A stretch of DNA of 59,241 bases, counting the filler, from Dirinaria sp. TL-2023a (taxonomy: Eukaryota): assembly GCA_051941275.1 (NCBI GenBank). It is 2 parts of 2 records of this genome, joined end to end, with 100 filler letters (N's around TTAATTAATTAA, not from the genome) between each part and the next. Parts side by side here need not be neighbours in the genome. Positions count along the whole stretch, not along the records: positions 29,701 to 59,241 come from JAVEBF010000114.1; 1 more part is not named here. One strand, written 5' to 3'. The position numbers and the translations under genes were made by a program. Shown in pieces: positions 29,601-52,128 of the stretch; positions within the stretch are counted from its first letter, which is position 1; each line of letters starts with the position of its first letter. The notes beneath the pieces were generated by a model. It saw only the letters and a list, made by a program, of their open reading frames with translations, had not been told where the DNA came from and searched no databases.

Positions 29601-29700
29601 NNNNNNNNNNNNNNNNNNNNNNNNNNNNNNNNNNNNNNNNNNNNTTAATTAATTAANNNNNNNNNNNNNNNNNNNNNNNNNNNNNNNNNNNNNNNNNNNN
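29601..29700. other. Assembly gap with artificial stop-in-all-frames linker
   Basis: 44 N + TTAATTAATTAA (29645-29656) + 44 N = 100 nt. Confidence 0.97.
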
Positions 29701-47893: not shown

Positions 47894-50298
47894 ATGGTGA
47901 AAAGGAAGCTTGGAGCGCTTGAGAAAGTGGATGCTGATCTGTAAGCCAAGTATTCGTGAAAGCGAGTATACTTCTCACCAGCTCCAGGCCCAACCTCCAG
48001 TATAAAATTCGACGGGATCCAAGGTGAGTCGAGCCATCAGCGTAACCGATCTAAGACTCAAGTCTATAGCTCGTACAAGGTAGAATTCGAATCGCAGTAC
48101 GGGCAGTACGATGCACAACGAGCGCTCTTCTTACAGGCGCCCGCATCCGCTACCGACGCTGGTATCGTGTCATTCCGAGATCTCATCGACTTCGTCGCGC
48201 ATCTGGCCGACTGCTATCCCACGATTACAGCTGCTTTTCCCAATCAGCTCGTTGAAATTTTAGAAACGCATCATCAGGACCTTGAGCCCGAGCTAAGGGA
48301 GAAGATTGTAGGAAGCTTAGTGTTGCTGCGCAAGAAAGACATTATCGAAGCATCTAAGTGAGCCCGTAGCATTGATGTGTAGACAAAACCAGAGCTGACA
48401 CTCCATTACACAGGCTGCTGCAGACGCTCTTCCCTATCCTCATCACAACGCCCAGCAAATCGCTTCGCGCGCTCATATACCAGAAAATCATCTCGGATCT
48501 GCGCGCTTCGAGTGCGAAGAACACCAACCACCGCCTCAATCGAACAATACAAACCTTGCTTTATGACCTCATAGTGTCTAATAGAGAATCGCCCAAGGGT
48601 CTCTGGGCTGTCAAAATCACCCGGGAACTATGGAAGCGTCAAGTGTGGATAGACGCTAAGGCGGTAGATGTCATGAAAGAAGCCAGCCTAGCGGATAACG
48701 CCAAGGTAGTTATTGGTGCTGTGGGCTTCTTCCTGGGCGGCGACAAAGAGAGAGAAGAACTTGTGGATGAAAGCAGTGACAACGACACCGTCGATGTTAG
48801 AAAATTGAAACACCAGATCGGAATCAACAAGAAAACCAAGAAGAAAGCCAGAACCATGGAGAACGCTATTGCAACAGTGAAGAGAAAAGAACGAAAAAAG
48901 AAACAGCCCCATCTTCTGAATTTTTCTGCTTTCCACCTATTGCACGACCCACAAGGTTTTGCGGAAACCCTTTTCTCAAAGCATTTGCAGAATAGCAAAT
49001 CAAGCTTGAACCTCGAACAAAAGCTTCTTGTACTCCAATTGGTATCTCGTCTCGTTGGCTTGCACAAGCTTACTGTTTTACCGTTGTACTCGTACTTTCT
49101 GAAGTACTTAACTCCTCGCCAGCCTTCCGTCACTTCTTTCCTAGCTTCCTTGGCTCAAGCTACTCATTCACTTGTCCCTCCGGAGGACATTGAGCCTCTT
49201 ATACAGAAGATCGCGAATGAGTTTGTCTCCGAAGCCGCGGCTGCAGAGGTTGCATCTGCCGGACTCAATGGCATACGTGAGATCTGTGTACGGCAGCCCC
49301 TTGCCATGAATGCTACTCTATTGCAGGACTTGGTCATGTATAAGAAGAGTAAAGACAAAGGTGTAATGATGGCCGCTAAGGGTCTCCTTGGGCTGTATCG
49401 CGAAGTGGGTGCAGACATGTTAAGGAAAAAAGATTTAGGCAAGGAGACAGCTTTAAGCCTGCGAGCGGGTCATCGAAAGGAGCGTCGCTTTGGCGAAGAG
49501 GAAGCTGGCGGTATCGAAGGTCTGGAGCTGCTGGAGAAGTGGAAGGACGACGAGCGACAGAAAAAGCGACTTGAGCTGGGCGTCACCGCTCATGCTACTG
49601 ACGTTGAGCCTGAGTATGACGAGGACAATGATACAGGCTGGGAGGCTGACGATGCTGGTTCTGACGATTCTGGTGGCTGGATCAGTGTTAACGGTGCCAG
49701 CGACATCGAGCTGAGCGGTTCTGATGAGGATAGACCTGTCTTTAAGCGCGTCAAACATCAAGATACTGTATCCGACGAAGGCGAAGACAAGGAAAACGAG
49801 GTCGACAATAGGGTAGATCCTGTGCAAGAAGCTTCGAATCTTGCATCGAAAACAATATTAACTCCAGCTGATCACGCGAAGCTTCGAGAGCTACAGCTCG
49901 AAGCAAGCGTCAACAAGCTTCTCCCTTCGTCTCATCGGAAGAGAATTGCTCAGCAGCAAGCTCAAGTCACTCGACATGCCGATGATCCACTGACTGCAGC
50001 GGAGATCGAAGGACTTGCGTTGTTGTCCAAAAAGACAACTAAGGCAGATAAAGTCGCACGTGCAAAAGAGGGCCAGGTGGAACGGAGCGAGCATAAGAGT
50101 ACTCAGGCGATCAGAAGGTCCAAGAAGGAGGCTCAGGGGAAGAGTTCAACGAACAAGGAGAAAGCAAGACGAAAAAATTTCTTGATGACGTTGGGCAAAG
50201 CGAAGGGCAAGCAAAAGAGGAGCCTAGTGGAAAAGGGAAGGGTGCTAAAAGCACACGCGGACCGCAGTAAGCGAGGAGGCAGAAAAGGAAATCGATAG
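47894..50298 (+). CDS. sda1: Ribosome biogenesis protein Sda1
   Basis: MVKRKLGALEKVDADL|PNLQYKIRRDP, HLLHDPQGFAE, KYLTPRQ..VT, IANEFVSE and STNKEKARRKNFLM. Three short 5' introns. Confidence 0.95.
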
Positions 50299-50606
50299 CT
50301 TGCGAAATCCCTACTCATCACCAACATTGACCGAGCAACCACCAATTTGCCAAACCAGTACCAATCAAGAAACCAACATTCTACAATCTCGAGTAAGTCT
50401 AAGTCACGTCGTCCGCATGATTTCTCGGGCAATCCGACGTTAACTAATGTCTACAGCATTCTCAAGTCCCTCAGCCCACCTCAGTGAAACCGCTTCGCCA
50501 GACACACTTCCTCTGACCCACCTCAGCCAACCAGTGAGTCTTCATCACGTCTTTTCGCCTTCACACCCTAGAGACTAACAATTCTACAAAGCAAAGCCAA
50601 AAAAAA

Positions 50607-50774
50607 ATGTGCTGGGTTGTGGTATTGTACCCGTGTGGTCACGTTTACGATCCGCACCACTTCGTCGAAGATTTCATGGGTCGGGTGCATTGCGTTTGTA
50701 CGAGGTTCGAAGGTTACGTTGTTGTGGATGTTAAGCCTTGCTTTCGCTGTTTGCCTCCAAAACCAAAGCTCTAA
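50607..50774 (+). CDS. Putative 55-aa Cys/His-rich microprotein (possible zinc binder)
   Basis: MCWVVVLYPCGHVYDPHHFVEDFMGRVHCVCTRFEGYVVVDVKPCFRCLPPKPKL. The ATG has an A-rich context and follows two consensus introns. It is below the ORF-track cutoff. Confidence 0.55.
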   Translation: MCWVVVLYPCGHVYDPHHFVEDFMGRVHCVCTRFEGYVVVDVKPCFRCLPPKPKL

Positions 50775-51050
50775 AATTTAGAGCTACATGTTCTAAGAGT
50801 TTATGGAGTTGTGGGATCGGCGCTGGCTGAACGGAAAGCCTCCGCGGCCTAAGAGACAGACCTTTTAAAGCTTTAGGGATCAAAGGGAGGGCTACAGTAC
50901 TACCGAAGCATCATTGAACCTTTCTGTTGCTTATGTGACCTCAATTGAAGTAGATTAACGTAGTATTGAATTGAGTTCCCGCCTCGACAATTGCAGAGCT
51001 CCGATCACACTTCCCAGAAAGCCATTATCAGAGCTCGGCTACGCCTCGTC

Positions 51051-51067
51051 AGCCCTACAGAGCCCTA
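51051..51067 (+). promoter_or_regulatory. Tandem AGCCCTA (Tbf1/Homol-E-like) ribosomal-protein promoter motif
   Basis: AGCCCTA at 51051 and 51061 (10-bp spacing), about 115-130 bp upstream of rps5. The reverse complement TAGGGCT resembles the Tbf1 RP-gene motif. Confidence 0.5.
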
Positions 51068-51179
51068 GCGCGCACACGGCGCTAACAAGCGAGCCGTGAA
51101 CCCGAAAGATTCTTCAACCACCAAACGTTTCCCCAAACCTACTACGAGATAACAACGTCAATCGCCTGTGGTCCCCACG

Positions 51180-52128
51180 ATGTCCGACAACGGCGAAGTC
51201 GAGGTTGAAAGCCCAAGTGGGTTTAATGTGCTGCCCAAAGACGTGACGCAGGAAATCGGTACTGTTAAGCTGTTCAACAAGTGGAGCTACGAGGACGTCG
51301 AGGTGCGGGATATCAGCTTGACGTGAGTCTCTTGTCCTTCCTCTCCGGCGGAATCCAGTGCAATCGACCTGAAGTGCAACCCTCACAAGACCATCACATC
51401 CTTCCTTGTTCCTGACAAAATGTCTCCCCTGGGGCTCCACAATTGTCGTCTCCCCAGATATACACCCGAACTGGCCCCTCAGTTCGGAACAACTTTTGAT
51501 CAATCAATGACTAACGACATGGTGGGACCAAAAACAGTGATTACATCCAAATCCGAGCGCCTGTCTACATCTCTCATTCTGCAGGGCGATACGCAGTAAA
51601 ACGGTTCCGCAAAGCGCAATGCCCGATTATCGAGCGACTGACCAACAGCCTCATGATGAACGGACGCAACAATGGGAAAAAACTCATGGCTGTACGGATC
51701 GTGGATCACGCTTTTGAGATAGTATGCCTTCTTCCCCCATCCTTCCCTTCCCCTCTCCTTCTCCCTTACACCCCTCATCCACATCAAACTAACAACTCCG
51801 CCTCGCCCAGATTCACATCATGACCGACGCAAACCCTCTTCAAATCGCAGTCGACGCAATCGTGAATTGCGGCCCCCGCGAAGACAGCACGAGAATCGGC
51901 TCCGCAGGTACAGTCCGTCGGCAAGCTGTTGACGTATCACCCCTACGGCGCGTAAACCAGGCTATTGCGTTGCTCACCATCGGAGCCCGGGAGGCGGCGT
52001 TCCGGAATGTGAAGAGTGTGGCGGAATGTTTGGCTGAAGAACTGATCAATGCGGCCAAGGGAAGCAGTAACAGTTATGCCATCAAGAAGAAGGATGAATT
52101 GGAACGGGTGGCGAAGAGTAACCGGTAG
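51180..52128 (+). CDS. rps5: 40S ribosomal protein S5 (uS7)
   Basis: [32 protein letters not shown] and C-terminal [10 protein letters not shown]. Introns 51323-51537 and 51722-51810. Confidence 0.98.

Follow-up and report, generated by a model that had tools for sequence, protein, structure and literature searches.

A Cys/His microprotein gene behind two spliced introns directly downstream of sda1 in Dirinaria sp. TL-2023a, a candidate bicistronic arrangement

RNAs that carry more than one same-strand ORF have been described in several fungi. The reports cited here and below are quoted from partial texts, and statements taken from them hold within those texts. In Agaricomycetes, genes found on polycistronic RNAs are also transcribed independently, and no such RNAs were found in Neurospora, according to the available part of the report (PMC4503453). 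Fusarium graminearum has 914 polycistronic or readthrough transcripts at 321 loci (10.1101/2021.11.08.467853). In Zymoseptoria tritici 224 such transcripts are listed and they are rare; short-read assemblies can fuse overlapping 3' and 5' UTRs into false polycistrons (10.1101/2023.04.26.537486).

Translation of a second ORF has been approached in other systems. Readthrough in Arabidopsis is favoured by intergenic splicing; the resulting RNAs are cleared by NMD, and the long form seldom serves for translation of ORF2 (PMC9768141). In the Glarea lozoyensis IGG1/IGG6 bicistron, reinitiation after a long ORF takes place via a short IGG element (PMC10352335). The exclusive bicistrons of green algae yield two proteins from one nuclear mRNA by leaky scanning (PMC11892635). 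Finally, introns in 3' UTRs can trigger EJC-dependent NMD in Neurospora (cited in PMC7746235).

The locus described here lies in a window of 59,241 nucleotides (the whole stretch of DNA that was analysed) taken from a 27.7-Mb fungal assembly, that of Dirinaria sp. TL-2023a. The window joins contigs C113 and C114 at 29601-29700, where two runs of N enclose 12 bases, so that gene order across these positions is not real; the locus is on C114. Its features are as follows.

47894..50298, + strand: sda1 CDS, 751 aa (open spliced frame, Pfam domains, three introns seen as RNA joints)
47894-47940, 47988-48023, 48070-48357 and 48414-50298, + strand: the four sda1 exons
50296-50298, + strand: sda1 stop codon TAG, at the usual C-terminus of the Sda1 family and seen in RNA
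50299..50392, + strand: non-coding exon A, 94 nt, covered by RNA contigs; sda1 3' UTR by position, 5'-leader-like by composition
50393..50456, + strand: intron 1, 64 nt, GTAAGT..CTAAT..CAG, spliced in three of four RNA runs
50457..50533, + strand: non-coding exon B, 77 nt (79-84 nt in relatives), C+A 0.70, between two RNA joints
50534..50591, + strand: intron 2, 58 nt, GTGAGT..CTAAC..AAG, donor confirmed by RNA, acceptor inferred
50592..50606, + strand: leader part of exon C, 15 nt, with A8 directly before the ATG (15 nt in 6/6 genomic loci, 12 nt in the RNA relative)
50607..50774, + strand: ORF of a 55-aa Cys/His microprotein, MC-x7-CGH-x16-CxC-x13-CxxC with a basic, Pro-rich tail, supported by positional homologues and selection
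50775..50920, + strand: 3' UTR of the spliced RNA, approximate end (RNA contigs end at 50898, 50908 and 50919; the next bin is uncovered)
51051..51067, + strand: AGCCCTA in tandem, within a block ahead of rps5 that is conserved in relatives (z 8-9); probable rps5 promoter element, taken as the boundary of the unit
51180..52128, + strand: rps5, for 40S protein S5, with introns at 51323-51537 and 51722-51810; a separate downstream gene with its own RNA contigs

As in the fungal polycistronic and readthrough RNAs, two same-strand ORFs separated by a stop codon lie under one RNA cover, and the upstream gene apparently has no end signal. The locus differs from them in its second ORF of only 55 aa (the Fusarium pipeline, in the text available, called for two annotated ORFs and has a size term of 100 aa; 10.1101/2021.11.08.467853), in a spacer with two introns that keep their positions although synonymous sites are saturated, and in that the joined form is the only one seen and not a rare one, as judged from short-read contigs, not single molecules. 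With the Arabidopsis RNAs it shares introns between ORF1 and ORF2 on a putative readthrough RNA and, for any sda1 molecules that cross them, NMD as the expected fate; in Arabidopsis splicing removes the ORF1 poly(A) site (PMC9768141), whereas at sda1 neither a poly(A) site nor an unspliced form was seen and the introns look like leader introns of the small gene. The IGG bicistron is a fungal precedent for translation of a second ORF after a full-length first one; IGG6 measures 9 nt (PMC10352335) compared with 186 nt for the spliced sda1-ORF spacer, a comparison of length and not of sequence. Green-algal bicistrons depend on a weak start of ORF1 and on a scarcity of AUGs ahead of ORF2 (PMC11892635), whereas sda1 has a strong start (GCCATGG) and 26 AUGs in its CDS; leaky scanning was rejected on these grounds.

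The last sda1 exon contains the Pfam domains SDA1_HEAT, SDA1_dom and SDA1_C. The conserved Sda1 C-terminus at the stop, the presence of the stop in RNA and the lack of conservation of the spacer frame indicate two separate ORFs and not one mis-annotated gene. A Cys-rich tail was absent from the last 75 residues of 119 other Sda1 matches and of one apparent recoded gene call. P0037, a gene call on the L002 contig, is a 678-aa Sda1 entry whose tail is unspliced downstream DNA read past a TGA; this entry seems to be no real extension but an artefact of calling genes with a TGA=W code. For comparison, metagenome contigs were scanned with the Sda1 C-terminus, and the best 80 of 159 confirmed stretches were used as comparison loci. 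In an Sda1 tree (quick method, 83 rows), the window grouped with loci L002, L004 and L005 and with six unnamed proteins (support 99), inside a larger group. The named rows of the latter include Xylographa, Trapelia, Lambiella, Circinaria and Pleopsidium, which we take to be Lecanoromycetes.

RNA evidence came from the only runs found to contain this stretch, four runs (X1-X4) of one lichen-metagenome sample in one study, and the RNA contigs, about 97% identical to the window, belong to a relative and not to the sequenced strain. They are short-read assemblies, which drop rare forms; starts, ends and single molecules are beyond their reach. The earlier note on this DNA had read two introns after the sda1 stop (GTAAGT 50393..CTAAT..CAG 50456 and GTGAGT 50534..CTAAC..AAG 50591), and both sets of coordinates were correct. 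Contigs of X1, X2 and X3 contain the joint 50392->50457 and a second one leading from 50533 into the third exon; run X4 does not cover the sda1-ORF junctions. The acceptor of intron 2 was deduced from a variant 7-letter junction in the relative, identical to 50592-50598 except for one change. On the + strand of the 59-kb window a strict intron motif was found seven times, introns 1 and 2 accounting for two of the seven. In each of X1, X2 and X3, one contig extends from inside the sda1 CDS (49794, 49778 and 49638) to 50919, 50898 or 50908. These contigs bridge the 3' part of the sda1 CDS, both joints and the ORF, and none covers the whole of sda1; as short-read contigs from three of four runs, they are compatible with a single sda1-to-ORF molecule.

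Depths in intron bins equalled those predicted for a spliced contig (5.35 compared with 5.36, and 5.12 compared with 5.13; X2 and X3 alike), and by this measure the assembled RNA contigs contained no unspliced form and no intron cover. Therefore, any detected sda1 RNA with a UTR longer than 94 nt is spliced. Contig depth was 9-10 over the joined part and 5.6-9.3 upstream, with no clear step, contig depths being unsuited to ranking gene parts. A search for snoRNAs or other structured ncRNAs (Rfam, E<=5, 49800-51600) returned one chance match, outside the unit; the introns are only 58-64 nt long.

The ORF proposed earlier, opened by an ATG at 50607 in an A-rich context, was recovered as described, with its 55 aa and its cysteine pattern (C2, C10-G-H12, C29-x-C31, C45-x2-C48; TAA at 50772-50774). 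It is single-copy in its own genome by protein search. Conservation and synteny were both borne out: at five of the 80 loci (L002-L005 and L033), a homologue is present about 305 nt past the sda1 stop, ahead of rps5 at about 820 nt past the stop, and L033, L004 and L005 retain the full set of seven Cys/His residues. The window and L033 ORFs are 35% identical with a BLOSUM62 score of 98, which none of 5000 shuffles reached, including shuffles with the cysteines fixed.

Selection was also observed. Between the window and L033, pS was 0.79 and pN 0.47 in the ORF (Fisher, p=0.0015), compared with a pS of 0.90 in sda1; the corresponding ORF values were 0.98 and 0.42 between the window and L004 (p=6e-9), and 0.37 and 0.19 between L033 and L004 (p=0.034). 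Synonymous sites are saturated between the window and sister-clade ORFs and amino-acid sites are not. The UTR 3' of the ORF has diverged to chance (z about 0). Compared with the RNA relative, the ORF has five listed differences (three synonymous and two in one codon) and no gap, with up to three further differences in 50602-50708 or 50875-50898 beyond those listed; in about 145 nt of 3' UTR, 10 or more differences were counted. Judged by these substitution patterns, the 55-aa ORF is a genuine protein-coding gene that has been under purifying selection in the past.

In the sister clade the gene is decaying. The L033 ORF (591-752, + strand) is a fully open frame of 54 codons with all Cys/His residues, which starts with ACG and has A at -3; this start is either near-cognate or marks the onset of gene loss. 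In L002 and L003 an early TGA and a frameshift interrupt the ORF, and Cys2 is changed to Trp; L004 and L005 have four in-frame stops each. Between L033 and L004, dN/dS was 0.43 for the ORF and 0.02 for sda1, which fits selection followed by relaxation. The relatives hence display stages of gene loss (intact, ACG start, stops, frameshift), with the intron layout beside sda1 persisting. Disabled in four of five relatives, and with an ACG start in the fifth, the gene is dispensable in the sister clade, and its present-day function is uncertain.

By alignment, the intron layout is kept across synonymous saturation. The intron 1 donor lies at +97/+99 in five related loci, with GAGTAAGT kept; these five, L002-L005 and L033, are the only loci with an intron at this position among 72 with enough downstream DNA. 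A counterpart of intron 2, 56 nt long and with a weaker donor, is predicted in the same five relatives. At all six loci the distance from stop to donor is 94-99 nt and the leader 186-198 nt, and the sequence of exon A has diverged to a level close to chance. Conservation does not extend to the A tract ahead of the ATG. Intron 1 has full splice signals in all five relatives, and between L033 and L004 it is 87% identical, compared with 71% for the ORF and 74% for the downstream UTR. With 54 nt compared and recent losses of the gene, this is only a hint that intron 1 matters to the sda1 RNA.

The exons between sda1 and the ORF resemble a 5' leader. The C+A content of exon A is 0.71; across 57 distinct 3' ends of other sda1 genes it is 0.43 +/- 0.06 and at most 0.57. 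U makes up 19% of the exon, none of the poly(A)-like words looked for occurs in it and it is unstructured (z 0.58). In C+A, exons A and B resemble rps5 5' leaders (0.66-0.79) and not the UTR 3' of the ORF (0.38-0.48), which is G/T-richer, like the rps5 3' UTR. These data support the earlier view that there is little room for a separate sda1 terminator. The sequence from the sda1 stop to the ORF contains just two ATGs; both lie in intron 1 and are removed by splicing, which leaves a spliced spacer of 186 nt. This spacer is AUG-free in five of six loci, the sixth being the ACG-start locus; the regularity is weak, as the chance probability is 0.14-0.30 for each locus and four loci are near-copies.

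Several accounts of expression were weighed. In one, there is no internal promoter, and 40S subunits would stay on the RNA after sda1, scan the AUG-free spacer and reinitiate at AUG 50607, so that microprotein output would follow sda1 expression. The contiguous spliced contigs of similar depth agree with this, as do a sda1 3' end without promoter-like motif, the splicing out of the only two spacer ATGs, an unstructured spacer exon and the lengths maintained in 6/6 loci despite the divergence of exon A. For fungi, reinitiation downstream of full-length ORFs is documented with the IGG element, which in its optimised form is however 9 nt and not 186 nt long (PMC10352335), and fungal polycistronic RNAs are, in the texts available, mostly minor beside monocistronic ones (PMC4503453; 10.1101/2023.04.26.537486). 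The lack of conservation of the A tract before the AUG also speaks against it. Reinitiation after a 751-codon ORF is normally poor; we regard obligate reinitiation as unlikely. Its fuller version is similarly improbable: an old obligate spliced bicistron, in which two conserved sda1 3'-UTR introns would clear AUGs, the microprotein would be made by reinitiation and the junctions would exert NMD control. Two overlapping monocistronic mRNAs merged by the assembler would produce the same contigs, if sda1 ended no more than 94 nt past its stop and the small gene started slightly upstream of that end. Such merging is documented in Zymoseptoria (10.1101/2023.04.26.537486, in the part available), the exons are 5'-leader-like and related motif ORFs appear standalone. 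The sda1 3' end would then have to form in C-rich sequence with little U (19%), which resembles none of the 57 other sda1 3' ends, and the overlap would have to suffice for contig joining in three runs; this too we think rather unlikely.

The ORF could also be a relic, a small gene that lost its expression when absorbed into the sda1 3' UTR, and that would be untranslated here and has simply not yet gained a stop, with an intron-bearing and possibly NMD-tuned sda1 3' UTR persisting. The different disablements in L002/L003, L004/L005 and L033, the elevated dN/dS between L033 and L004, the maintenance of intron 1 splice signals and its identity relative to the ORF are in keeping with a relic, and 3'-UTR introns can trigger EJC-dependent NMD in Neurospora (PMC7746235, partial text). 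Against it, the window ORF has an ATG in strong context and all seven Cys/His residues, and its listed differences from the RNA relative are few, mostly synonymous and without gap, compared with those in the 3' UTR; a relic is therefore quite improbable in our estimate. Least credible of all is stop-codon readthrough, or UAG-to-UGG editing, yielding a minor fusion of Sda1, a linker and the Cys domain (751+1+62+55 residues). It would draw on a spliced spacer of 62 codons that contains no stop and joins sda1 and the ORF in one frame (11% of shuffles lack a stop, a share to be multiplied by about 1/3 for the frame), on the C directly after the sda1 stop and on the 3-nt indel of the RNA relative, which keeps the frame. 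However, all five relatives have in-frame stops in the spacer, whose lengths (191-198 nt) leave remainders of 0, 1 and 2; their sda1 stop is TGA or TAA in another context; the Cys-rich tail is absent from the last 75 residues of the other Sda1 proteins searched; and no change of the TAG is listed in the RNA contigs, which do drop rare variants. Programmed readthrough is characterized by a conserved stop, context and open extension, and here the frame is open only in the window and, by the listed differences, in the 97% relative.

We tentatively prefer, with somewhat less than even confidence, a 3'-coterminal pair composed of a long sda1 mRNA ending 3' of the ORF and a short mRNA from which the peptide would be made. 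An ordinary small gene of an unnamed Cys/His microprotein family would have come to lie about 300 nt past the sda1 stop in the ancestor of the clade, its two-intron 5' leader doubling as sda1 3' UTR. With no end signal in the 94-nt C/A-rich exon, the sda1 mRNA would be spliced twice and end at the poly(A) site of the small gene, and would thus be bicistronic in structure. The peptide would come from a second mRNA, capped and shorter, which begins close to the sda1 stop and has the same 3' end, its AUG-free leader being scanned to AUG 50607. As a side effect, the sda1 mRNA would carry junctions 94 and 171 nt past its stop and might be a partial EJC-NMD substrate; EJC-dependent NMD of this mRNA is plausible if sda1 molecules cross the +94 and +171 junctions.

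For this 3'-coterminal pair, the composition of exon A together with the lack of intron cover suggests that sda1 RNA continues through both junctions. The 5'-leader composition, the AUG-free spacer and the standalone motif ORFs make the introns best read as the small gene's own leader introns. ORFs with a similar motif are found well away from an upstream stop: those of L007-L010 on the opposite strand, that of L012 at +493, and seven candidates on other contigs of the own genome. A search of 49950-50392 for a TATA box, a pyrimidine tract or the AGCCCTA motif found none, only one 9-nt A/T run; an internal promoter thus has no sequence support. In the RNA evidence, contigs from one sample of a relative, neither a start site nor a poly(A) site was seen. 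The earlier note had proposed a bicistronic transcript or an internal promoter. Of the former, the joining of the sda1 CDS to the ORF is borne out by the contigs, with one molecule for both ORFs as a probable reading and translation from it as a doubtful one; the latter fits the 5'-leader-like exons well, enters into the reading preferred here and encounters the lack of promoter-like motifs just mentioned. Summed over all readings, the sda1 mRNA probably contains the ORF, and it is doubtful that the ORF is translated from it.

The 55-aa ORF looks like a member of a scattered, multi-copy and unnamed fungal Cys/His family. A pattern search of its own genome gave 34 MC..CGH matches, compared with 17 in a reversed control. 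Translation covered 59 loci, namely the first 30 of the 34 matches plus 29 additional ones among the first 30 of 60; 22 of the resulting ORFs have an in-frame MC..C-x-H and, besides the 55-aa ORF, seven end the motif in CxxC or CxxxC. Small ORFs with an MC-x8-9-CGH start and mostly a CxxC end are present at L090, L095, L098, L101, L103, L105 and L108 (also L086 and L094) of this genome; L090 ends in CTVM, presumably a CaaX-like terminus. Pfam gave nothing above cut-off in the seven own-genome motif ORFs scanned. When the seven ORFs and that of L012 were compared with the locus profile, hhalign returned a probability of 91% (E 9e-7, 35 columns), a match that is partly circular because the comparison set was picked by the same motif. 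Like the unnamed fungal small proteins of the form MC-x7-9-C-x-H...C...CxxC, the 55-aa ORF has an N-terminal MC, a CGH or C-x-H, a middle Cys and a terminal CxxC; unlike them, it has x7 spacing and a CxC pair.

In two other lineages a motif ORF was seen no more than 1 kb downstream of sda1. An intronless 57-aa ORF lies between sda1 and rps5 on the strand opposite to sda1 at L007 (4090-4260, - strand) and also at L008-L010. It reads MC-x7-C-x-H..CxC..CxxC, with an AAAATG start and a long C/A-rich leader, and is intact in 4/4 loci, the differences being mostly synonymous. Its orthology was not established: in comparison with the window ORF, p is about 0.03, or 0.09 if the cysteines are fixed, and in comparison with L033 it is about 0.10. 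It was not among the matches listed by a search with a window and L033 profile. In a more distant fungus, L012 (3818-4051, + strand) has a 78-aa MC..CGC..C..C..CxxC ORF 493 nt past the sda1 stop, with an AAAATG start, a C/A-rich leader and no intron seen before it. The loosened motif arises about once per 373 kb in shuffles. At 71 of the 80 other sda1 loci, neither a homologue nor a C-x-H motif ORF was found in the available flanks, L012 with its looser motif being one of the 71. The earlier note had placed the ORF between two ribosome-related genes. No link to ribosome function was found; the picture is that of a seemingly scattered multi-copy family, of decay in the sister clade and of the 71 loci just mentioned.

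Pfam, PDB-sequence and fold searches with the 55-aa ORF or the family gave no match, and hence none to a known zinc finger or zinc ribbon, and searches for distant relatives among proteins of near length gave no candidate for the ORF or a five-row alignment. One match among 1.84 billion representatives, a repetitive 294-aa protein, was judged spurious. The best ESM Atlas scores, 0.85 and 0.87, were with small unnamed Ascomycota/Basidiomycota clusters and fall below the lead level of 0.9, recognition being below the mark for known families. A first AlphaFold model of the microprotein (pLDDT 48) was unusable; a second (pLDDT 65) had short beta strands only and matched nothing in Foldseek or VIA-align. 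From its ligand pattern the microprotein is probably metal-binding. A literature search, mostly of open-access main texts without supplements, found no paper on the locus or the peptide family.

The gene downstream of the ORF (51180..52128) is presumably rps5, and its RNA contigs are not joined to the sda1-ORF contigs. Its first intron (51323-51537) is 215 nt long, compared with 46-89 nt for the other six introns, and had no Rfam match at E<=5. At 51040-51100 the tandem AGCCCTA, followed by GCGCTAA..CGAGCC, is conserved in L002-L005 and L033 amid DNA that has diverged to chance. From its position and conservation this block is probably a promoter element of rps5 or of ribosomal-protein genes; it may be akin to Homol-E/Tbf1-type sites. 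The same-strand linkage of sda1 and rps5 occurs in two orders: rps5 is downstream in the window and in nine loci (L002-L005, L007-L010, L033), and lies about 3 kb upstream of the sda1 stop in eight (L021, L030, L034-L037, L070, L072). The two groups are separate clades in the Sda1 tree; an old neighbourhood of ribosome genes seems to have been permuted locally.

If a short mRNA accounts for the peptide, the locus is a neat and unexceptional example of tandem genes in tight packing. The loss in the sister clade and the lack of a link to ribosome biogenesis lower the stakes. At the least, the locus provides an unannotated microprotein gene with evidence of selection, and points to a multi-copy family of fungal Cys/His small proteins with neither Pfam nor structure match. 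Translation of a second protein from a housekeeping mRNA is a testable possibility and not a result. If true, it would provide a naturally occurring ascomycete example of ribosomes that reinitiate past a long ORF and a spliced spacer, and would allow a direct test of the interplay between 3'-UTR introns, NMD and downstream-ORF translation in fungi.
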